Source: Raja brachyura (Eukaryota). Taken from it: DNA of 64,000 nucleotides. Both the position numbers and the translations under genes were made by a program. The DNA is taken from positions 5,952,001 to 6,016,000 of the forward strand of contig OY740783.1 in the NCBI GenBank assembly GCA_963514005.1, in the 5' to 3' direction. The notes under the pieces were generated by a model. That model searched no databases. It had not been told where the DNA came from and saw only the letters and a list, made by a program, of their open reading frames with translations. Shown piece by piece: positions 24,916 to 43,339 of the stretch; position 1 is the first letter of the stretch, and every line of letters begins with the position of its first letter.

Positions 24916-25832
24916 TCCACAACTGCACGGGCTAAACCACGGCTACTGAAATTAAAGGAATGTTTCGCGTGTCGCTGGGTGAAAAGCGTTTTCTTGGAAG
25001 TACAAGTAGCTGAGATGGAGAAATCGAGAGTAAGGGATGGCGTCCTTGCACGAGGGAGATTGGAAGGATGCAGTCAAAGTAACAAGTATTAATGGGCGTC
25101 TGTGCGTAGTCTATCTTTTGTGATGGAGACAGAGAGATCCTGAAAGCGGAGTTCCGTCACGGAGATTGTCCTCGTGAATTTCCGTTGTTCTATTTCATTT
25201 CTCCGTGTCAGTAACACTCTCTGTAGACGTGAAGCTTGTCAAGCCCTTAACGCAGGGTGAATTATATTCACATTTAAACTCCTTGACACCTCATTTTTAC
25301 CATGTTACATGGGACATGCTCCAGGGAAATATTTGTAACGTGATTTCACGAACAACAGTGTTGTACACTGAATAATATTTATAGTAATGGATCACCACTC
25401 GACAAGAACATTAAAGGTTGGAGCAGGGGAGGCCATTTGGCCCTTAAAACTGGTTCAACCTGATCATCATGTGCCCGATTATTCAAAATATTATTAGATC
25501 CCTCCAACGCCCAGAACTCTATCTAGCAAATTTGTGAATGGATGTAATGAACATCCATTCTATCTTTTAATCAATTGCACTTCTCACTTTCAGTCCAAAG
25601 TGACTTTCAGTCCAAACTATCAGAAGAGCACAATTTCATTTCGGAGTCACGTGAGTGACTTCGTGAAGAACCCGCCAGCACGCATGCGCGACATATCGTC
25701 GCTCGCATTGCAGTCGACGGCTGGAGAGGAGCGCGGCTCATCACCAGCCCTTCATAAGGGCCACTCAGGTAAGTACTAACAACCTTGAGTTGGTTGTTCT
25801 GTGTGAATAATTGTGTTTTCTTCCACAGAGAC

Positions 25833-27602
25833 ATGGACAGTAGAAAAAGTAAAGGCCGTAAAACTTCTGCAAGGAGTTGTCGGCAACCCAACCCGGAGCC
25901 CCCCTCCACGGCAGGAGGACGGGCCGGGAAAAAGGCGCGCAAGCCGGGGAGCCCTGTATTCACAGGATCCGGTTCACCGACGCAGCTATGCCCTAGCGGG
26001 GTACCTGCAGAACAATCAGTCGGTACAGCGCCGGAGCAGGTGCATCCTGACTCCATCTCTCTCTCACCCACTGGGTCGTTTGCAGAGACAAGTAAAAGGG
26101 ATTCGCGTGCTGATGCACGGCCCTTCTCCCTGAGCCCTCTTGAAGGAGGCAGGGATACAATTCCACTACCTAGCCCTTCGCGGGTTGAGGTCTCACCAGG
26201 AGCCACTAGGAAGTGGTCTGGTGAATCAGGCAGGCCCGAGTCCACTGGCAGACCAAGAAGGGCCAGTGTCGACTCACCACCCAGAGGGACCAGGAGGAGT
26301 CACAAGGGTGGAGCCTCGCCTAGGTCACCGCTTCCCCCGCTGGGGGCAGGTCGGGACCGTACGCCGTCTGGGTCCAGATTTAGGACAGTCGGCAAGCCCG
26401 TGCGGACGTCGGGTCACCACGCTGCGGCGTCAGGTGCCGACCTCTCCCCACCCATGCCCTTTGAGGCAGCCGGGTCCAGCTCAGCGAAGAGGAGGCGCTC
26501 GAGCAGGTCCGCGCGGGAATCGCTCAGCTTCGCCGAGGCGGCTGGTAGCGACACATCATCACAGTACCGATATTACCTCGACGAGGTACGGACTGATGAT
26601 CGAAGCCTCAGGAGTTCCTTCGGGCACGAGGCCTCTTACCTCCCACACCCGCCCGATGAAGGGCGCTTGGATCGTATGGAGAGGATATTGGAGCAAGTTC
26701 TACTCAATCAGAAACAGGACACACACAGCTCCAGGGGACTCATGGATATATCCCCGTCCCCATCTATGGACAACATAAGACCAGATGAGGAGGATATCCT
26801 GGTACATGCCCCAGCAGCACCTGAGGTCCCTCAGGAAGATCTGCTGGATGTGGCAGCCAAATTCGGGTTACCCGTATCATCAGGACAACCCCTCAACATC
26901 AAACTGGCCGCAACCATAGATTATCTTACCAACCATCAATTGCAGGAGGAGGTCCTTGCGAAGGCCATGGAGAGACACAAGGCTCCAGGGAACTGCAATT
27001 CACTCCACGTGCCGATTGTGAACATGCCAATCTGGGGTAATATCAGCCCGGGCATCAGAGCGCAGGAAGTGAAACTGCAGAGGATTTTAAAACTGCTTAC
27101 GTCTGGGATCACCGCTTTTGCAAAGTCGGTAGATGGGGTTGATCTAAGCACCGAACAGGAGGATGCTCTAGCTCTGCTCTGCAATACGCAGTACGAGATC
27201 AACGCTTTCCGGAAGAGCATTATCAAACCTTCCTTGAATCCCAAATTTGCGGGACTATGCAGAGCACCTCCTACCCCCCCCCCACCTAGACAGCTGTTCG
27301 GGGAAGACCTCCCAAAGCAGGTCAAAGAGCTCGATGACCATGCGAAAACCATAGGTCTGATGAGACCACATTTTGTGGCCAGACCTTCGGCCAAGAAGAC
27401 ACCTTACTTCAGGCCACGAGGTCAGACCGATAGGCCAACAAGGACCTACGTTCCGGCACCTCCTCAATATCAACAGCCTCATCAGCCCAGGCCTTTTTTA
27501 GGACTAGGCCCTCAGCGGCCAGCATGGAAGATGCGGATTCCGCACCAACCACGAAACCCAGCGCCTCCACGTCCCACCAAAAATCCCAGGGACCGCCGAT
27601 AA
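25833..27602 (+). CDS. DIRS Gag-like ORF1 (copy 1)
   Basis: Low-complexity N-terminus, then P.NC..L.VP.VN..IW and LFG.DL motifs. Collinear with ORF 37579-39324. Confidence 0.85.
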   Translation: MDSRKSKGRKTSARSCRQPNPEPPSTAGGRAGKKARKPGSPVFTGSGSPTQLCPSGVPAEQSVGTAPEQVHPDSISLSPTGSFAETSKRDSRADARPFSLSPLEGGRDTIPLPSPSRVEVSPGATRKWSGESGRPESTGRPRRASVDSPPRGTRRSHKGGASPRSPLPPLGAGRDRTPSGSRFRTVGKPVRTSGHHAAASGADLSPPMPFEAAGSSSAKRRRSSRSARESLSFAEAAGSDTSSQYRYYLDEVRTDDRSLRSSFGHEASYLPHPPDEGRLDRMERILEQVLLNQKQDTHSSRGLMDISPSPSMDNIRPDEEDILVHAPAAPEVPQEDLLDVAAKFGLPVSSGQPLNIKLAATIDYLTNHQLQEEVLAKAMERHKAPGNCNSLHVPIVNMPIWGNISPGIRAQEVKLQRILKLLTSGITAFAKSVDGVDLSTEQEDALALLCNTQYEINAFRKSIIKPSLNPKFAGLCRAPPTPPPPRQLFGEDLPKQVKELDDHAKTIGLMRPHFVARPSAKKTPYFRPRGQTDRPTRTYVPAPPQYQQPHQPRPFLGLGPQRPAWKMRIPHQPRNPAPPRPTKNPRDRR

Positions 27603-27604
27603 CC

Positions 27605-29534
27605 ATGAAGGTAAGGGGGTCTGGGTTCCATGCACTTGCATGTCTAACCTCACGAATTGGGGGCAGATTACGGGGATTTAAGGAGGCTTGGGAAACCATC
27701 ACTTCAGATGAGTTTATCTTGCAAAGTATTCAGGGTTATGAAATTGAGTTTATTCATGGCCAATTGCCTCCACCCCAGCATATGCCGAATCGCAAATTTG
27801 CACTTTCCAAAAAAGAATTGGCAGAAGGCTATGCTGAAATCTTGAGTTTACAAGACAAAGGTGTGATAGAACGAACCACACATGAACCAGTTGAATTTGT
27901 GTCTAATATATTTACTAAAACTAAAAAAGACGGTGGATGCCGGGTCATTATAGATTTAACTCACTTGAATACCTTTGTAAAATACACCCATTTCAAAATG
28001 GACACATTTGAAACAGCCAAATCTTTGATTTCGGAGGGCTGCTTCATGGCATGCATTGATTTAAAAGATGCATACTATTCAGTATCCATTCGGAAACATC
28101 ATAGGAAGTTCTTGAAGTTTACCTGGATGGATCAGCTTTGGGCAATACAAAGCATTGCCCAATGGGCTTACTACAGCCCCCAGACTGTTCACCAAACTAC
28201 TCAAGCCAGTGTTATCTACACTGCGGAGACAAAATCATACGGTCATGGCTTATTTGGATGACATTCTGATAATTGGGCACACTCTGGAATCCGCAGAGTT
28301 GGCGGTTTCAGCCACAGTGGAAATTTTTCAACAAATGGGGTTTATAATCCATCCAGACAAATCAAAGTTCCTCCCCGCACAGATCATGGACTACTTGGGG
28401 TTCACAATAGACTCCAATCGCATGATCACCACCATCCCAACTAACAAAGTTGGTGATGTGTTTCAAGCATGCAAGAACCTGGTCTGCGCCAGTATACCGT
28501 CTATCAGATTAACTGCCAGGGTAATTGGCAAAATTGTAGCAGTATTTCCAGCTGCTCAATATGGACCTTTACACTATCAGAATTTACAAAGGTCAAAAAT
28601 AACAGCATTAAAATTAAATGCTGGACATTATGATAGACCCATGCAGTTGCCGGTTAAGGCAAAACTTGAGTTACTATGGTGGATTGGCAATATCCATAAC
28701 TCATTTAAACCCATCATTGTGCCTCGTCCAAAGGTATACTTGCAAACAGATGCAAGCTCCCATGGCTGGGGAGCTACAGACAACAATAACAGTTGTGGAG
28801 GTAGATGGGATTCACTTGAAGCTACTTTGTTGTTAGCACAAGGGATAAACTATTTGGAGATGCTAGGAGCATTCCACGGACTTAGAGCCTATTGTTCAAA
28901 CATGACTAACACTCATGTCCGTCTCCAAATAGACAATACCACTGCGGTGGCTTATCTGAATCATATGGGCGGTACCAGGTCAATTTCATGCAATGAATTG
29001 GCAAACACAATTTGGCTCTGGTGTATTCAACGGAATATTTGGATCTCAGCTACCTACTTGCCAGGTGAGCTCAATACAGTGGCGGACACCAGGTCACGGA
29101 AGTTCAATGACAATATCGAGTGGATGTTGAACCCCCAAATATTCACCAAAATTACAGCCAAATTTGGTAAACCGGATATTGACCTTTTTGCGTCACGGTT
29201 GAACCATCAGGTACCAACATACGTATCATGGGAGCCAGATCCTGGGGCAATGGCGATGGACGCATTCTCGCTAGACTGGGGGAAATGGTTCTTCTATGCC
29301 TTTCCTCCATTCTGCCTCATCAGTCGGGTATTGCGGAAAATCCAGCTCGATGCTGCCAAGGGCATCCTCATTATACCCGACTGGCCTACGCAATCATGGT
29401 ATCCGGTGGTCCTTGGAATGATAAGTCAACCATGGGTCCTCTTGGAGGGTTGCCCACAATTGGTGACGAACCCTGCCACAGGGGAACCACACCCCTGCCA
29501 TAGTCATTTGAATCTATTGGCTTGCAGGATCTGA
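27605..29534 (+). pseudogene. DIRS Pol (RT, RNase H, Dam-like methyltransferase), frameshifted near 28140
   Basis: DLKDAYY, YLDD, TDAS..GWG, DNTTA, DLFAS, YAFPPF. One extra G (ctttgggcaatac versus ctctggcaatat in copy 2) splits it into ORFs 27524-28261 and 28155-29534. Confidence 0.9.
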
Positions 29535-30511
29535 ACAGGCCACTACTTCAGTATGGTCTATCTTCAAGGACAATGGATACCATGGGAGCATCATGCAGGG
29601 AGTCCTCAAGACGGCAGTACTTATCGTACATCAGGAAATGGGAATCCTATTGTGGCCGCATGGACGTTGCATATGACTCCGTCTCCATCACAGATGTGCT
29701 GGAATTTCTTGCGGGGCTACATCATGATCAACATCTCAGCTATAGTGCCATCAATAGCGCCAGGAGTGCGCTCTCGTCCTACCTCAATATTGAGGTAGGA
29801 TCCAATAAATTGGTCTCCAAACTTATGCGGGGGATATTTAATTCCAACCCGCCGAGGCCCCGTTACAACGTCACATGGGATATTGGCAAAGTGCTGACCC
29901 TGCTGAGAACATGGTCACCCATGACGGGGCTCGAATTGGACAAACTCACCCTGAAGGTGGTGATGTTGATGGCACTTACTTCAGCACAAAGGGTGCAAAC
30001 GCTTCACAAGGCCAAGATCGACAGAATGATCTCCACCCCTGAACGGGTCACTTTCTTCATTGATGAATTGCTCAAGCAGCATAGACCTGGATTTACAGGG
30101 CTGCAGCTGGAGTTTCCAGCATACCCCGCTGATGCTAGGCTATGCATAGCCACCCATATCCGCCACTATATCAAAGTGACGAGGAAAATATGGGGAATGG
30201 AGCAATACCTGTTCATCAGTCACAAAAAACCTCACCATAGAGTGACGGTGCAGACGATATCCCGATGGCTCAGGATCGTCTTAAACAAGGCAGGTATTGA
30301 CACTAATGTTTTTAAATCCCATTCCACCAGGGCAGCATCAACATCGGCGGCAAAGGCCATGGAGGTGCCCATGGACCAGATACTTGCCACAGCGGGATGG
30401 GCCAGTGAAGCCACTTTTCAACGGTTTTACAATAAACCCGTCACCGTACCTGGAATGTTCGCAGGAGCCGTGCTGGATGCAGGCCGAGAACATACAGTTC
30501 CCCCTCAGTGA
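29528..30511 (+). CDS. DIRS tyrosine recombinase (copy 1)
   Basis: SAQRV (R), LKQ (K), HSTR, AGW, F.RFY catalytic pattern. Confidence 0.92.
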   Translation, partial: DLNRPLLQYGLSSRTMDTMGASCRESSRRQYLSYIRKWESYCGRMDVAYDSVSITDVLEFLAGLHHDQHLSYSAINSARSALSSYLNIEVGSNKLVSKLMRGIFNSNPPRPRYNVTWDIGKVLTLLRTWSPMTGLELDKLTLKVVMLMALTSAQRVQTLHKAKIDRMISTPERVTFFIDELLKQHRPGFTGLQLEFPAYPADARLCIATHIRHYIKVTRKIWGMEQYLFISHKKPHHRVTVQTISRWLRIVLNKAGIDTNVFKSHSTRAASTSAAKAMEVPMDQILATAGWASEATFQRFYNKPVTVPGMFAGAVLDAGREHTVPPQ

Positions 30512-31349
30512 GGGGTCCTTTCTTGTTGTTATTAATAAATATTATTATTTTTTCAGAGAAACAGTGACGGAAATTGATTACTGCTGTCCACCTTTTCAGT
30601 AGCGTGTGTGATAGCATGGACGTTGTCCAGGGCGTGAAATCACAGAAGCTTTGAAGTCTTCACGAAGTCACTCACGTGACTCCGAAATGAAATAGTAAGA
30701 TTAAACGAGAACTTACCAGTTTGAAGTTTGATCTTTATTTTATGAGGAGTTGCGATGAGGGATTTCGTGCCCTCCGCTCCCAACCCTCGATCATAAAGTC
30801 AACTGGTAACTAGAGTCTCTTTAATCTTACTATAACAAGTCATTTCTTGGCTTGGTTTTTCTGTGATTCCACACCGCGGCTTTGAAGTATGTCGCGCATG
30901 CGTGCTGGCGGGTTCTTCACGAAATCCCTCATCGCAACTCCTCATAAAATAAAGATCAAACTTCAAACTGGTAAGTTCTCGTTTAATCTTACTATTAAAT
31001 TATGAATCCTAATGACCCATTTGTTATTCAATAGCGTCGCCAGTTGAGGGTTTGAGACACGTGTTGCTGGGCAGATCTTGGAGTTGTTAGTTCGCAGTCA
31101 GCAGCTCTGTGCTTTGGGCTGGAATCAGTACATTCATTTCTCTAAATAATCCACAGGTGCTTCCGTTCAGGTATTCCTGCTCTTTGCTAACGGTGGAGTG
31201 TTGGACTTCACCCACATAATGTGCAGGGGAAAGGTGAAATCAATTGGAATCAGAAAAAATATGAATAAATATGAAATGCCATGCATTTAAAAATGAAGCT
31301 TTAAAGGCGAGTTCTGAGGCTAATAAAATTAAGTGAGACACAGTTGCGG

Positions 31350-34562: not shown

Positions 34563-37500
34563 GGCAGTAGGCAATAGACAATCGACAATAGGTGCAGGTA
34601 TAGGTCATTCGGCCCTTCAAGCCAGGACCGCCATTCAATGTGATCATGGCTGATCATCCCCAATCAGTACCCCTTCTCCCCATATCCTGCCTTCTCCCCA
34701 TATCACCCGACTCTGCTATTTTCAAGATTGCTATTGCCCTATCTAGCTCTGCCTTGAAAGCATCCAGAGAACCTGCCTCCACCGCCCTCTGAGGCAGAGA
34801 ATTGCACAGACTCACCACTCTCTGTGAGAAAAAGTGTTTCCTCGTCACCGAGCTAAATGGTCCTACTCCTTATTCTTAAACTGTGGCCCCTGGTTCTGGA
34901 TTCCGCCAACATCGGGAACATGTTTGGTGCCTCTAGGGTGTCCAAACCCTTAACAATCTTATATGTTTCAATGAGAATCCCTCTCATCCTTCTAAACTCC
35001 AGAGTGTACAAGCCCAGCTGCTCCATTCTCTCAACATATGACAGTCCCGCCATCCCGGGAATTAACCTTGTAAACCTACGCTGCACTCCCTCAATAGCAA
35101 GAATGTCCTACCTCAAATTAGGGGACCAAAACTGTATACAATACTCCAGGTGTGGTCTCACTAGGGCTCTGTGCAACTGCAGAAGCACCTCTTTGCTCCT
35201 ATATTCGATTCCTCTTGTTATAAAGGCCAACATGCCATTCACTTTCTTCACTGCCTGCTGTACCTGCATGCTTACTTTCATAGACTGATGTACAAGGACC
35301 CCCAGATCCCGTTGTACTTCCCCTTTTCCAAACTTGACGCCATTTCGATAGTAATCTGCCTTGCTGTTTTTGCTACCAAAGTGGATAACCTCACATTTAT
35401 CCGCATTAAACTTCATCTGCCATGCATCTGCCCTCTACCCAACCTGTCCAAGTCACCCTGCATTCTCATAGCATCCTCCTCACAGTTCACACTGCCACCC
35501 AGCTTTGTGTCATCTGCAAATTTGCTAATGTTAGTTTGAATCCCTTCAACCAAATCATTGATGTAAATTCTAAATAACTGCGGTCCCAGCACTGAGTCTT
35601 GTGATACACCACAGTCACTGCCTGCCATTCTGAAAGGGACCCGTTAATCCCTACTCTTTGTTTCCTGTCTGCCAACCACTTCTCTATCCATGTCAGCACT
35701 ATACCCCCTATACCATGTGCCCTCAATTTGCCCACTAATCTCCTATGTGGGACCTTATTAAATGCTTTCTGAAAGTCCAGATACACTACATCCACTGGCT
35801 CTCCCTTGTCCATTTTCCTAGTTACATCTTCAAAAAATTCCAGAAGATTAGTCAAGCATGATTTCCCCTTCTGAAATCCATGCTGACTCGCACCGATCCT
35901 GTTACTGCTATCCAAATGTGCGGCTATCTCATCTTTTATAATTGACTCCAGCATCTTCCCCACCACCGATGTCAGGCTAACCAGTTCCCTGTATTCTCTC
36001 TCCTGCCTTTCTTAAAAAGTGGGATAACATTAGCTACCCTCCAATCCACAGGAACTGATCCCGAGTCTATAGAACATTGGAAAATTATCAGCAATGCATC
36101 CACGATTTCTATAGCCACCTCCATAAGTACCCTGGGATGCAGACCATCAGGCCCTGGGGATTTATCAGCCTTCAGTCCCATCAATCTATCCAACACCATT
36201 TCCTGCCTAATGTGGATTTCCTTCAGTTCCTCCGTCACCCCAGATCCTTTGGCCACTTCTATATCAGGAAGATTGTTTGTGTCCCCCTTAGTGAAGACGG
36301 ATCCAAAGTACCTGTTCAACTCATCTGCCATTTCCTTGTTCCCCATAATAAATTCCCCTTTTTTCCCTTCAAGGGTCCAACTTTGGTTTTAAATAATTTT
36401 TTCCTCTTCACTTACCTAAAGAAGCTTTTACTATCCTGCTTGACTAGCTTACCTTCGTACCTCATCTTTTCTCCCTGTATTGCCTTTTTGGTTATCTTCT
36501 GTTGCCCTTTAAACATTACCTAATCCTCTTGTTTCCGGCTCATCTTTGCTAAGTTGGACTTCTTTGCTTTAATTTTTATACTGTCCCTGACATCCCTTGT
36601 CACCCATGGTCGTCCCTTTCTCCCCTTGGAATCTTTCTTCCTCCTAGGAACAAACTGATCCTGCACCTTCTGTATTATTGCTAGAAATACCTGCCATTTC
36701 TGTTCCAATGTCATCCCTGCTGGTGTATCTTTCCAGTCAACTTTGTCCAGCTCCTCCCTCATGGCCCCATAGTCCCCTTTATTCAACTGTAACACTGACA
36801 CCTCCGATCTACCCTTCTCCCTCCCCAATTGTAGATTAAATCCGACCATGTTATGGTCACTGCCTCCTAATGGCTCATTAACCTTGAGGTCCTTTATGCA
36901 ATCCGGTTCATTACATAACACTAAATCCAGAATTGCCTTCTCCCTGATAGGCTCCAATAGAAGCTGTTCTAAGAATCCATCACAAAGGCACTCTGCAAAG
37001 TCCCTTTCTTGGGGTCCAGTACCAACCTGATTTTCCCAGTCTACCTGCATGTTGAAATCTCCCATAACACCCACAGCATTAATTTTACTACATGCCAATT
37101 TTAACTCCTCATTCAACTTGCGCCCTATGTCCAGGCTACTGTTTAGGGGCCTGTAGATTAGTCCCATTAGGGTCTTTTTACCCTTATAATTCCTTAGTTC
37201 TATCCATACTGACTCCACGTCTCCTGTTTCAATCACACCCCTTGCAAGGGACTGAATTTCATTCCTCACCAACAGGGCAACCCCACCCCCTCTGCCCACC
37301 TGTCTGTCTTTTCGATAGGAGGTATACCCTTGGATATTCAGTTCCCAGCCCTGGCCCTCTTGCAGCCGTGTCTCAGTAATTTCATTTCGGAGTCACGTGA
37401 GTGACTTCGTGAACAGCCCGCTGGCGCGCATGCTCGACATATCGTCGTATCGCGTTGCTGCGACGGCTGGCGGTGGAGCGCGCTCCTCGCCAGCCCTTCA

Positions 37501-37578
37501 TAAGGGAACCACTGAGGTAAGTATCCTACCTTAAGTTGGTGGTCCTTGTTGTGTTACTTTGTTTTTTGCAGCAAGGAC

Positions 37579-39324
37579 ATGGATGGGAGTTCTAAGGGCC
37601 GGAAAACGTCTGGACGAGGTCGCCGGTCAGCAGTCCCGGAGCCATTGATATCGGCGGTACCTGCAGCGCAGGCCGGGACACGGGCGGGAATGTCGGTAAG
37701 CCCTGTGTTTACAGGTCCGGATCCGCCAGCACACCACAGTTTGGAGGAGTTCGACGAGGAGGAGTGTGGTGTGCCGCCAGAGCAGGAGGACCCTGCCATG
37801 GCAGTCAGGTCGTCAGCAGGCTTGCTGGCGACCTCGAGCAGAAGGGTGCGTGCAGCGGCACGGCCCTTTTCACTCAGCCCTCCGAGTAGGGGAAGGGCAG
37901 GAGCCCAGAAGTCTAACCCTGTCGGGGCTAAGGCTTTGCCTGCCGCCGGGGAGCGGTCAGGTTCCAGGGCGGGACCCGGGGCGGCTGTGAGGTCCAGTCG
38001 ACGCCCCCCAACTCTCGACGCCGGGACGGGTCGGTTGGGTCGGGTCTCGTCACGGTCGCCGAGCCCCCCATGGATGGGTGGGCGAGACCATGCGTCGGCG
38101 AGGTCCACGACGTGGGCTGCCGGCAAGCCTGTGCGGGCTTCGGGTATCCATGCTGCGGCTGGTGCCGACACCACGCCGCAAGTGCCCTTAGTGGCAGCGG
38201 CTTCAGCTCCCGCTAAACGGAGGCGGTTGAACACGCCCGTGTGGGAATCGCGCAGTTTCGCTTCGGCGGCTGTTAGCGACGACTACTGGCACCGGGTGGG
38301 CCTCGATGAGGTGCGGGCCGATGATAGGGGCCCCAGCAATTTTTCAGAGCCGGAGGACTCCAACCACCTGAGTGTTCAGGGTGAAGGGCGTATTGACCGT
38401 ATGGAGCGGCTGCTGGAGCTCCTGCTTCACGGTCAACAGCAGCAAGCGTCCAGCAGCGACAGGCACAGGGCTGTTTCACCAACTTCCACCTTCAGCCTGG
38501 AGCAGCAGGATGAGGAGGTTTTGGTCGATCCCATACCACCTCCATCAGATTTACCAGCGGAGGAACTTCTCGATGTGGCCGCTAAGTTCGCGGCCCCACA
38601 CTCGTCTGGGCTTCCCCTGAACTCGAAATTGGCAGCCACAGTGGACTTCCTCAACAACCATCAGCTCCAGGAAGAAGTTCTCATTCAGGCCATGAGCCGT
38701 CACAAGGCTCCATCCAACTGCAACTCCCTCAATGTGCCTGTGGTCAATACGCCGATATGGGGCAACATCAGTGCGGCTATCCGTCAACAGGAGCTAAAAA
38801 TTCAGCGGATTCTGAAGCTCCTCACGGCCGGTATTACCGCCTTTGTGCGGTCGGTTGATGGGGATGAATTAAATTTGGACCAGGAGGATGCTCTCGCTCT
38901 ATTGTGCGCAACTCAACATGAGATCAATGGGTTCCGCAAAAGCAGCATCCGCCCGGCGCTCAACCCTACGTTTGCAGGGTTGTGCAAACCACCGCCGCCG
39001 CCGCCGCCCCGTCAGCTCTTTGGAGAAGATCTCTCGAAGAGGGTCAAAGAGCTTGACGAACAAGCCAAAACGGTGGGACTCATGCGCTCTCACAGTGCCC
39101 CCAGGCCGTTGGGCTCGAAAGCTCCGCTTGTTCATCCACGAGGGTCTGCCAGCACCTCTACAAGGACCTACCCTCCAGCTCCACTCCGTTACCAACAGCC
39201 CCAGCAGCAGGGGGCTTTTTTAGGACAAGGTCGGCAGAAACCCTGGTGGAAGATGAGGACGCCGCGCCCTCAAGCCAACCCAGCACCTCCACGTCCACCC
39301 ACACGTGTCAAGGACCGCCGGTAA
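37579..39324 (+). CDS. DIRS Gag-like ORF1 (copy 2)
   Basis: Homologous to 25833-27602. Confidence 0.85.
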   Translation: MDGSSKGRKTSGRGRRSAVPEPLISAVPAAQAGTRAGMSVSPVFTGPDPPAHHSLEEFDEEECGVPPEQEDPAMAVRSSAGLLATSSRRVRAAARPFSLSPPSRGRAGAQKSNPVGAKALPAAGERSGSRAGPGAAVRSSRRPPTLDAGTGRLGRVSSRSPSPPWMGGRDHASARSTTWAAGKPVRASGIHAAAGADTTPQVPLVAAASAPAKRRRLNTPVWESRSFASAAVSDDYWHRVGLDEVRADDRGPSNFSEPEDSNHLSVQGEGRIDRMERLLELLLHGQQQQASSSDRHRAVSPTSTFSLEQQDEEVLVDPIPPPSDLPAEELLDVAAKFAAPHSSGLPLNSKLAATVDFLNNHQLQEEVLIQAMSRHKAPSNCNSLNVPVVNTPIWGNISAAIRQQELKIQRILKLLTAGITAFVRSVDGDELNLDQEDALALLCATQHEINGFRKSSIRPALNPTFAGLCKPPPPPPPRQLFGEDLSKRVKELDEQAKTVGLMRSHSAPRPLGSKAPLVHPRGSASTSTRTYPPAPLRYQQPQQQGAFLGQGRQKPWWKMRTPRPQANPAPPRPPTRVKDRR

Positions 39325-39326
39325 CC

Positions 39327-41255
39327 ATGGAGGTGAGGCGGTCTGGTTCTCTCTTTTCTCTTTGTCTAACCTCACATGTTGGTGGGTGCCTTCGGTTCTT
39401 TTTGGGTGCATGGGGTGATATTACTGGTGATGAGTATGTGTTACAAAATATTCAGGGTCATAAAATTGAGTTTCTTAATGGGGACATTCCTCCATCCCAG
39501 CACAGGCCTGGTCGAACATTTAAATTGTCTGCTGCAGAACAGGCAGCAGGCTATAAGGAAATTTTGAGGCTAGCACAGAAGGGAGTGATAGAGAAAACGG
39601 TTCATGAGCCAGTTGAATTTGTTTCTAATATATTCACTCGACCCAAGAAGGATGGAGGCTGTCGAGTCATCATTGACCTGACTCGTTTAAATACTTTTGT
39701 AACATATACTCATTTCAAAATGGACACTTTTGAAACAGCCAAATCATTGATTTCACATGGTTGCTTTATGGCATGCATTGATTTACGAGATGCGTACTAT
39801 ACTGTATCCATTCAAAAATGTTATAGGAGGTTTCTGAAATTTATCTGGATGGGTCAACTCTGGCAATATAGGGCTTTGCCAAACGGGCTTACCACAGCCC
39901 CTAGATTATTCACTAAATTGGTGAAGCCAATTATGACTTATTTACGACAACGACATCATATAGTAATGGCCTATTTAGATGATATCTTAATTGTCGGCCA
40001 CACCCTGGAATTGGCTCAACAGGGTGTTGCAGCTGCTGTCAATATATTTCAGCAGCTGGGGTTCATTGTCCATCCAGCCAAATCAAAGTTCTGCCCCTCC
40101 CAGGTAATTCATTATCTGGGGTTTACGGTGGACTCTATTCACATGAGGGTCACCATACCAACTAATAAGGTTGAGGAGGTCACCCAGGTGTGTCAAGGTT
40201 TAATCAGCGCTAGTATACCATCGATTCGACATAAAGCTACAGTAATTGGCAAGCTTGTAGCATTGTTTCCGGCAGCCCGATATGGGCCTTTGCATTATCA
40301 GAATTTGCAAAGGGCCAAGATCGCTGCGTTAAGACAGCACGCTGGTCATTATAATCGACCAATGCAGCTGCCGCCCGAAGCGAAGGATGAGTTACGATGG
40401 TGGGTGCGTCACATTAGTAACTCATTTAAGCCTATTATTGGGGCTAATCCGGTGGTATACTTGCAAACTGATGCGAGCTCTTATGGCTGGGGAGCTACGG
40501 ATCATTACTCTAGTTGCGGGGGCAGATGGGATACCCTTGAGGCTACTATGTTGTTGTCTCAAGGGATAAACTATTTGGAGCTACTTGCAGCATTCCACGG
40601 ACTTCGTGCTTATTGTTCCAAGGTTTTTGGAGCACATGTCCGTCTCCAAATAGGCAACACCACAGCGGTGGCTTATTTAAACCATATGGGCGGTACCAGG
40701 TCAGTTTCATGTGATAAATTGGCTAACTCAATTTGGCTCTGGTGTGTTCAAAGAGACATTTGGATTTCAGCTACCTATTTGCCAGGTGAGCTTAATACTG
40801 TGGCGGACACCAGGTCACGCAAGTTTAATGACAATATTGAATGGATGTTGCATCCTGAAATTTTTGCCAAAGTTACAGCCAAATTTGAGAAACCGGATAT
40901 TGACCTTTTTGCGTCATGGTTGAACCATCAGGTACCAACATACGTCTCATGGGAACCAGATCCTGGGGCTATGGCGCTAGATGCATTCTCGCTGGACTGG
41001 GGGAATTGGTTTTTCTATGCATTCCCCCCGTTTTGCCTCATCAGTCGGGTATTACGAAAGATTCAGATGGATGCAGCCAAGGGCATCCTTATTATACCCG
41101 ACTGGCCTACACAGCCGTGGTATCCGGTGGTCTTTGACATGCTCAGTGAGCCTTGGGTCCTTTTGAAGGGTTGCCCAGAATTGGTTACTCACCCTGTCTC
41201 AGGGGAGCCACATCCCTGCCATGGCTATTTAAATTTGTTGGCTTGCAGGTTTTGA
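39327..41255 (+). CDS. DIRS Pol (RT, RNase H, methyltransferase), copy 2
   Basis: Open frame with DLRDAYY, YLDD, TDAS, DLFAS and YAFPPF. The RNase H motif reads GNTTA instead of DNTTA. Confidence 0.92.
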   Translation: MEVRRSGSLFSLCLTSHVGGCLRFFLGAWGDITGDEYVLQNIQGHKIEFLNGDIPPSQHRPGRTFKLSAAEQAAGYKEILRLAQKGVIEKTVHEPVEFVSNIFTRPKKDGGCRVIIDLTRLNTFVTYTHFKMDTFETAKSLISHGCFMACIDLRDAYYTVSIQKCYRRFLKFIWMGQLWQYRALPNGLTTAPRLFTKLVKPIMTYLRQRHHIVMAYLDDILIVGHTLELAQQGVAAAVNIFQQLGFIVHPAKSKFCPSQVIHYLGFTVDSIHMRVTIPTNKVEEVTQVCQGLISASIPSIRHKATVIGKLVALFPAARYGPLHYQNLQRAKIAALRQHAGHYNRPMQLPPEAKDELRWWVRHISNSFKPIIGANPVVYLQTDASSYGWGATDHYSSCGGRWDTLEATMLLSQGINYLELLAAFHGLRAYCSKVFGAHVRLQIGNTTAVAYLNHMGGTRSVSCDKLANSIWLWCVQRDIWISATYLPGELNTVADTRSRKFNDNIEWMLHPEIFAKVTAKFEKPDIDLFASWLNHQVPTYVSWEPDPGAMALDAFSLDWGNWFFYAFPPFCLISRVLRKIQMDAAKGILIIPDWPTQPWYPVVFDMLSEPWVLLKGCPELVTHPVSGEPHPCHGYLNLLACRF

Positions 41256-42232
41256 ACAGGCCGTTAGTCCAATACGGCCTCTCAACTCGGACCATGGATA
41301 CCATTGGGGCGTCGTGTCGAGAGTCCACAAGGCGAAGATACCGCTCACATATCAAGAAGTGGGAAGCCTACTGCAGCCGCTCTCGCATCACGTACGATGA
41401 CGTGACTATAACCGACGTCCTGGAATTCCTCGCGGGGTTGCACCATGATGAACACTTAAGTTACAGTGCCATCAACAGCGCCAGGAGCGCGCTGTCATTC
41501 TACCTCAAGATTGAGGTGGGATCCAACAGGCTAGTGTCCAGACTCATGCGGGGTATATTCAATATGAATCCGCCTACACCACGCTACAATATCACCTGGG
41601 ATGTCAGGGACGTATTAACCCTGCTCAGGACGTGGTCTCCCATGGAAGGGCTCCAGCTGGACAAACTCACCATGAAGCTGGTGATGTTACTAGCGCTGAA
41701 TTCAGCACAGAGGGTACAGACACTGCATAAACTACGTGTCGACAGAATGATGTCTACCCCTACAGAAGTAGTCTTCTTTGTTGTTGAGCTACTAAAGCAG
41801 CATAGACCTGGGTGCACAGGGCTGCAGCCGAAGTTCCCGGCATACCCTGCAGACGCTAGGCTGTGTTTAGCCTCACATATCCGTCACTATGTCAAGGTGA
41901 CGGCATGCATCAGAGGAATGGAGAGATACCTGCTTGTCACTCATAAGAGACCTCATCATCGAGTGACAGTCCAGACGATATCCAGGTGGCTCCGGGCCGT
42001 CTTGGGTAAGTCAGGTATCGACACTAATGTGTTCAAGTCTCATTCCACCAGGGCTGCATCGACGTCAGCGGCAAGGATTATGGAGGTGCCTATGGACCAT
42101 ATTCTCGCCACAGCAGGATGGGCTAATGAAGCTGTGTTTCAGCGATTTTATAACAAGCCTGTTGCTGCTCCTCTACAGTTCGCGGAAGCCGTGCTGAATG
42201 CAGGTCAAGAACGTGGAGGTGTCCCCGCATGA
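41249..42232 (+). CDS. DIRS tyrosine recombinase (copy 2)
   Basis: SAQRV, LKQ, HSTR, AGW, FQRFY. Confidence 0.92.
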   Translation, partial: VLNRPLVQYGLSTRTMDTIGASCRESTRRRYRSHIKKWEAYCSRSRITYDDVTITDVLEFLAGLHHDEHLSYSAINSARSALSFYLKIEVGSNRLVSRLMRGIFNMNPPTPRYNITWDVRDVLTLLRTWSPMEGLQLDKLTMKLVMLLALNSAQRVQTLHKLRVDRMMSTPTEVVFFVVELLKQHRPGCTGLQPKFPAYPADARLCLASHIRHYVKVTACIRGMERYLLVTHKRPHHRVTVQTISRWLRAVLGKSGIDTNVFKSHSTRAASTSAARIMEVPMDHILATAGWANEAVFQRFYNKPVAAPLQFAEAVLNAGQERGGVPA

Positions 42233-43339
42233 GGGGTTTTTGATTTGTTGTTAATAAATATGCTCTTGTTCTGCAGTATGAACTATTTGAGCAAGTTTGT
42301 TCCTCCCATCCATCCCTGCTAGTGGTGTGTCAGCATGGACGTGGTCCAGGGCGTGTAATCACAGAAGCTTTGAAGTCTTCACGAAGTCACTCACGTGACT
42401 CCGAAATGAAATAGTAAGATTGAACGAGAACTTACCAGTTCGAAGGTTGATCGTTATTTCATGAGGAGTCGCGGTGAGGGATTTCGTGCCCTCCACGCCC
42501 AGCCCTCAGTCACCTTCACCTGGTAATTTGAGTCTCTTTCATCTTACTATGCCAAGTCATTTCTGTTACTGGTTTCTGTGATTCCACACCGCTACTTTGA
42601 AGAATGTCGAGCATGCGCGCCGGCGGGCTCTTCACGAAATCCCTCACCGCGACTCCTCATGAAATAACGATCAACCTTCGAACTGGTAAGTTCTCGTTCA
42701 ATCTTACTATTCCCACATACTTGTCAATTTCTAACTGAGCCTCAAGCTCGTCCCCTTTATTCCTTATACTTCGCGCATTCATATACAACACTTTGACCTC
42801 CGCATTTACTTCCCAGCTCGCACCGCTCGTAATTGGCCCTGACCTTACTCTGTTGTCCATTCTCGAACTTTCCTTCCCATTAATTCGAGAATCTTTTGTA
42901 ATTTTTCATGTAGTCACTTCCCATTCAAATCCATCTTTACACTCCCAATTTGTCAATCCCTCCCCCCCACTATTTAGTTTAAACCCTCACGTGTAGCCCT
43001 CGCAAACCTGCCTGCCAGAATGTCGGTCCCCCTCCAGTTAAGGTGTAACCCGTCCCTTTTGTACAGGTCACCCCTACCCCAGAAGAGATCCCAGTGGTCT
43101 ATAAATCTAAATCCTTGCTCCTTAGGATCTTTGCTGCTGTTTCTTCAAAATCCACGGGAGATCTGAGTTAAGTCTGCCTGAGCATAGCCTCTCATTTTTA
43201 ATTGTTTTCACCCTCTGACTCACTTCTAACTCTCCTCCCACTCGGGCTAGAGCCAACCACTGATTTTTCCTGCTTCTCTTTGCTGCTGTTTCTTCAAAAT
43301 CCACGGGAATCTGAGTTAAGTCTGCCTGTGCTTTGCCTA

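Follow-up and report, generated by a model that had tools for sequence, protein, structure and literature searches.

The window, a 64,000-nucleotide stretch of Raja brachyura DNA (contig OY740783.1, positions 5,952,001 to 6,016,000), carries two DIRS1-like retrotransposons on the forward strand (Table 1). Each encodes a tyrosine recombinase (PF00589 and PF13495) and not a DDE integrase, and each has inverted terminal repeats together with an internal region that is complementary to both ends. Both elements have ATT at their ends, consistent with the NTT trinucleotides given as a DIRS1-like feature in excerpts of PMC3266345. The Pfam reverse transcriptase (RT) domain RVT_1 was matched in both elements, and this was counted as a pol of the RT and methyltransferase type, with a Dam methyltransferase match that was weak and sub-threshold in element 1 (E 4.5e-4) and an RNase H without a Pfam match. 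The pol frame of element 1, which is interrupted in the window copy, is open for 699 codons in nine sister copies. Both are complete, ordinary members of the DIRS1-like group.

Table 1. Features of the two DIRS1-like elements, in window coordinates. A slash marks a predicted exon-intron boundary.
Feature	Element	Coordinates	Strand	Details
DIRS1-like retrotransposon	1	25633..30996	+	ATT at both ends (25633/30994); pol frame broken near 28140 in the window copy
Candidate leader mini-intron	1	25769..25828	+	60 nt, GT..AG
gag ORF	1	25833..27602	+	589 aa; no Pfam match; relatives have a homologous ORF at the same place
U_UUU_UUA heptamer	1	27494..27500	+	gag phase; -1 frame open from 27434; predicted -1 frameshift site
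Predicted pol intron	1	27611..29527	+	AAG/GTAAGG ... TTGCAG/GAT, both phase 0; includes the coding regions for RT, RNase H and methyltransferase
Tyrosine recombinase, predicted exon	1	29528..30511	+	Pfam PF00589, PF13495
Internal complementary region	1	30657..30769	+	complementarity to element ends
Right inverted terminal repeat and extension	1	30888..30996	+	inverted-repeat comparison
DIRS1-like retrotransposon	2	37379..42711	+	three open frames; ATT at both ends (37379/42709)
Candidate leader mini-intron	2	37517..37571	+	55 nt
gag ORF	2	37579..39324	+	581 aa
U_UUU_UUA heptamer	2	39216..39222	+	gag phase; -1 frame open from 39057; predicted -1 frameshift site
Predicted pol intron	2	39333..41248	+	1916 nt; GAG/GTGAGG ... 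TTGCAG/GTT, both phase 0
Tyrosine recombinase, predicted exon	2	41249..42232	+	Pfam PF00589, PF13495
Internal complementary region	2	42376..42488	+	complementarity to element ends
Right inverted terminal repeat and extension	2	42604..42711	+	inverted-repeat comparison

The two elements belong to young families: a first look returned 3746 candidates for element 1 and 4118 for element 2, and the best 40 were 98-100% identical. The genome searched for copies and junctions comprises 2.7 Gb; ten copies each of element 1, element 2, and a third family were compared, together with 13 unspliced copies from further subfamilies. Related families were taken from 79 metagenome loci, 51 of which held gag and the start of pol and resolved into 25 families; once the broken copies L159 and L161 had been left out, 23 families with an intact -1 overlap remained. 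Splice sites were scored with approximate weight matrices. Stretches of both elements recur as a pair, with 100% identity, at two further sites on this contig (C3:5870539-5882937 and C3:5270037-5280288), which suggests segmental duplication.

Several further motifs were observed in these elements. The left terminal repeat contains a GCGCATGCGC-type palindrome (25680-25690) that is kept in many relatives, including distant families; we take it to resemble an NRF1 site, and it may be the promoter. In all three families, the interval from the recombinase stop to the internal complementary region contains AATAAA and, after it, a T-rich stretch that ends in CAG (30535-30556, 42254-42276, and about 5895-5925 in L025). 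This motif may serve for internal polyadenylation, which would yield uncopyable mRNAs, or as another acceptor. Donor-like sites are found in the RNase H region of both elements (CAG/GTGAGC, 11.0 bits; 29065 and 40786), where they may merely reflect coding, and approximately 25 nt before the 3' end (CTG/GTAAGT; 30971 and 42686), with a mirrored counterpart in the internal complementary region.

Close to the end of gag, the original prediction from the sequence of the window had placed a conserved splice acceptor, TTTTTTAG/GAC, ending at 27501 and 39223. Both coordinates were confirmed. The same letters include TTTTTTA, which is parsed as T TTT TTA in the gag frame, and pol occupies the -1 frame, which is open from upstream of the heptamer; a heptamer in the 0 frame inside an open -1 overlap is the arrangement of a -1 frameshift signal. 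An in-phase heptamer was present in the -1 gag/pol overlap of all 23 intact related families (U_UUU_UUA in 14, A_AAA_AAC in seven, and A_AAA_AAG and U_UUU_UUG in one each), compared with three and zero families for the other two phases, 6/139 control gag windows, and an expectation of 3.7 families from codon shuffles. Shifting at heptamers of these types is well established according to excerpts of PMC5009743: HIV shifts at U_UUU_UUA, and A_AAA_AAC ranks with the most shift-prone sequences in mammals. The codon TTA is rare among the Leu codons of these gag genes (3/43, 4/48, and 6/36), yet it is kept at the heptamer. No methionine is found between the heptamer and the RT start in 17 of the 23 families. 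Folding revealed no unusual hairpin downstream of the heptamer (z -0.4 to +0.8 versus shuffles, with pseudoknots outside the scope of the folding tool). As an acceptor, TTTTTTAG scored 6.7 bits in element 1 (rank 12) and 2.6 bits in element 2 (below the 12 sites listed) with the approximate matrix. These data indicate that the site is probably an in-phase -1 frameshift heptamer rather than a splice acceptor. The T run at this position is two letters shorter in L077-L081 and in a group of 84 copies that lack pol (L031-L070), all of which are decayed; the shorter run would place gag in frame with the downstream sequence without a shift.

A second candidate intron, which did not feature in the original prediction, spans pol. 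Its donor lies 9 nt past the gag stop in both elements, and its acceptor is at the recombinase start (Table 1). The GT-AG ends, consensus context, conservation, and compatible phases are those of a U2-type intron. In 20 of the 23 families, the top-ranked donor ahead of the RT start falls in pol phase 0, and in 19 it scores above every background window. The phase-0 donor is kept across the 20 families despite varying codons. For the acceptor, a first scan with a 90-nt window gave phase 0 in 13/28, which was not significant (p 0.10). In a wider scan, the window for which was chosen after partial output had been seen, the best acceptor before the recombinase was in phase 0 in 19/23 families versus 28/115 for the control. 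The position of the acceptor (0, -81, -201, or -216) tracks the extent of the open recombinase frame, and the upstream acceptor overlaps a pyrimidine-rich protein motif.

Exact loss of this stretch was observed in genomic copies. A pattern search aimed at the predicted sites produced 86 exact pol junction matches in this genome and none in the control. A broader pattern identified L195, a complete copy that is 96-99% identical to element 2 and lacks exactly 39333-41248. The exact junction is therefore present at 87 genomic places (86 plus L195) in at least three lineages, a figure that comes from a search targeted at the predicted sites and counts only deletions that end there. Most of the pol-less copies form one amplified group (84 copies); trees built from each flank require at least two origins among those examined, with L195 as a third, and recombination between copies blurs this count. 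Gag is retained up to the junction in 31 of the 32 copies examined from the 86, the exception being L044, which has a further deletion. Copies from sister subfamilies lack exactly the stretch homologous to the pol intron of element 1; the junction search of this genome found no pol-less copy for element 1's own family or for the third family. The intron ends share AGGT, and in the unspliced relatives of the 84-copy group they share seven letters, so template switching or DNA deletion could give the same junction. Among 44 proteins checked, four that come from NCBI gene models of sea urchin, brittle star, and abalone are predicted to have gag, an FF-containing linker, and a recombinase in that order, without an RT; the linker resembles the -1 frame. 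DIRS reverse transcriptase can work in trans, as described in a passage of PMC7192593, so a spliced RNA could be copied back. Among the listed matches of contigs from sequencing runs of unspecified type (X1, X2, X3, and X7 for element 2; X1, X2, X4, and X7 for L083), none carried a predicted joint, a result that counts neither for nor against splicing. Taken at sequence level, the copies that lack exactly pol suggest that the recombinase is made by splicing pol out.

It is also conceivable that the frameshift is as predicted but that the recombinase is expressed without splicing, from its own or a near-cognate start codon or through a second frameshift, and that deletions between short shared letters produced the pol-less copies. 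The four to seven letters shared at the junction would allow such deletions, several relatives (invertebrate families) have their own methionine just before the recombinase, and Poulter and Butler 2015, as quoted in an excerpt of PMC13003380, proposed that Ngaro elements reach the tyrosine recombinase (YR) by a frameshift. We consider this explanation improbable, because the identical exact junction occurs in separate lineages, the phase-0 donor is kept where the codons vary, and the acceptor position covaries with the open frame. Moreover, some families have no recombinase methionine for 249 nt or more, and in the third family there is none until 312 nt in. Removal of pol by splicing is the reading that we prefer.

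The shorter candidate intron lies in the leader. The original prediction had proposed a perfect AG/GTAAGT donor in each leader and an acceptor just before the gag ATG; both GT positions, both acceptor ends, and the resulting intron lengths were confirmed (Table 1). These sites are the top-scoring donor and acceptor within each 5.3-kb element (12.8 and 11.6 bits in element 1, 11.8 and 12.0 bits in element 2, by the approximate matrix). The intron sits outside any ORF, and its length varies little, from 54 to 63 nt, across 13 subfamily leaders. It had been proposed that the signals persist while the interior has diverged: the signals do persist, but divergence of the interior is only partial, with a mean column identity of 75% across the 13 subfamily introns. 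The concern that such introns are near or below the vertebrate minimum can be set aside, since a human intron of 56 nt undergoes splicing (excerpt of PMC8363638) and length is thus no objection. A single genomic copy, L176, lacks exactly the leader intron and has kept pol. The parent form is readable in 7 of its 13 sisters, six of which have an intact donor. The intron ends at the L176 locus overlap by three letters, so a deletion could mimic the exact loss. With GT-AG ends in consensus context, a conserved length, and this one exact loss in a copied element, the stretch between the leader donor and the pre-gag acceptor behaves like a real small intron.

The leader intron is retained in all nine pol-less copies with a readable 5' end (one further copy was unreadable), from which it follows that the copied RNA usually keeps it. 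Its presence is patchy among relatives and not universal: of the 16 related families for which the left end was located, L159 and L146 alone show it clearly on visual inspection. Single folds place a hairpin just after the leader donor (e.g., 25778-25798, L083:1719-1779, and L085:1621-1680), and in several subfamilies a second predicted hairpin in the intron hides the acceptor, which could favor retention. A consensus fold contained two pairs only and did not support a conserved hairpin in the intron. On balance, we regard the leader stretch as probably a genuine 5' UTR intron that often stays in the RNA. Some pol-less copies have an expanded 5' part that contains a second leader-like donor/acceptor pair followed by an ATG (L051:1-60 and L055:1-62).

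The leader donor had also been proposed to splice past gag to TTTTTTAG, possibly as its real partner, with Pol then translated from its own ATG on a subgenomic RNA. This is very unlikely. Both window elements and 11 of the 23 related families do have the AG, a short pyrimidine run precedes it, and the window copies have an ATG approximately 100 nt downstream. However, the AG is missing from the other 12 families and from 75 copies in this genome that have the T run without it, so it appears dispensable; the site scores weakly as an acceptor, and the letters fit a heptamer. The Pol ATG reads ACG in 10/10 close sisters of element 2 (39327) and TTG in nine of the ten third-family copies (no match was obtained in the remaining one), and a further ATG intervenes between the TTTTTTAG site and the Pol ATG. 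A conserved distal acceptor followed by a conserved start codon was not found. Junction pattern searches of this genome produced zero copies in which the leader is joined to TTTTTTAG, although such RNAs might simply escape copying, and no match for the leader joined to the recombinase acceptor. A scheme in which a shared Pol ATG is spliced to the recombinase was rejected for the same variation at the ATG. The wider proposal that the element is alternatively spliced is probably correct in spirit, with the genomic copies supporting removal of pol and not removal of gag. It is scarcely credible that the motifs merely follow from the encoded proteins (FLG in Gag, ACR in the methyltransferase), with Pol reached by reinitiation after the gag stop: the gag stop and Pol ATG are indeed coupled as TAA CC ATG in the window copies, and the recombinase acceptor overlaps a conserved pol motif, but a rare Leu codon is kept at the heptamer, A_AAA_AAC in other families alters the protein, the Pol ATG varies, and the leader intron is non-coding.

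We propose, with good confidence, that three proteins are produced from one transcript: Gag, Gag-Pol by a -1 shift, and Gag-recombinase by the same shift on pol-spliced RNA, with a leader intron that is likely real and often retained. Gag would result from normal reading of the transcript. The unspliced RNA would be the template for copying and would yield Gag and, where ribosomes shift at U_UUU_UUA, Gag-Pol. If the spliceosome removes the 1.9-kb pol region, the spliced RNA would yield Gag and, by the same shift, a Gag-recombinase that consists of Gag, about 37 residues, and the recombinase. By arithmetic from the coordinates, the predicted fusion proteins of element 2 would be ~1225 aa (Gag-Pol) and ~912 aa (Gag-recombinase). 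The 55-60-nt leader intron would be an optional 5' UTR intron. We find it reasonably likely, with somewhat less assurance, that this plan applies to animal DIRS1-like elements in general. A -1 shift at the end of gag would feed a cassette that is spliced to present either Pol or the recombinase, and both would enter the particle as Gag fusions. Spliced RNAs would sometimes be copied back and give rise to non-autonomous families without pol, and retention of the leader mini-intron would mark the RNA that was copied.

Retroviruses have a strong major splice donor in the leader upstream of gag, which is used to make subgenomic env RNA, and the unspliced RNA is usually the one copied. The elements described here resemble them in having a strong leader donor upstream of gag and, it appears, in usually copying the unspliced RNA; in contrast to env RNA, the evidence favors a local 55-60-nt intron and not a leader joined to a distant acceptor. 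Retroviral integrase ends the same polyprotein as Pol, whereas in these elements splicing would put the integrating enzyme in the place of Pol behind the shift. The heptamer U_UUU_UUA, its phase, its location at the end of gag, and pol in the -1 frame are all shared with HIV-1 Gag-Pol as presented in excerpts of PMC5009743, but no strong hairpin was found downstream of the heptamer. In Ngaro-like elements, as quoted in an excerpt of PMC13003380, the pol and YR frames likewise overlap without an obvious YR start; there the shift is proposed at the pol/YR overlap, whereas here it is at gag/pol and the YR is likely to be reached by splicing.

DIRS1-like elements in excerpts of PMC3266345 share the gag, RT/RNase H/methyltransferase, and recombinase ORFs, the inverted terminal repeats, the internal complementary region, and the ATT ends with those described here; the excerpts differ in describing ORF overlaps with no frameshift signal or splicing. 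In a term look-up of the searchable text, "splic" and "intron" occurred zero times in PMC3266345 and PMC9210276. Term look-ups of parts of PMC7192593, PMC5633606, PMC9210276, PMC3266345, PMC4157794, PMC3950715, bioRxiv 10.64898/2026.05.21.726589, and PMC5009743 returned no relevant passage. Our literature searches found no account of DIRS frameshifting or splicing; other papers by Goodwin and Poulter or Repbase entries may already describe the plan.

Many animals carry DIRS elements in abundance, and in many families neither pol nor the recombinase has a start codon; how the overlapping pol and recombinase frames are translated was left unexplained in the papers that we found. The proposed plan gives exact coordinates for the frameshift and splicing steps, and it would account for families without pol, which would likely be copies of spliced RNA. 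The plan would also make these heptamers a widespread group of -1 frameshift sites in eukaryotes. Retroviruses are known to use frameshifting and also splicing; what is unusual is the combination of both to swap the enzyme behind Gag.
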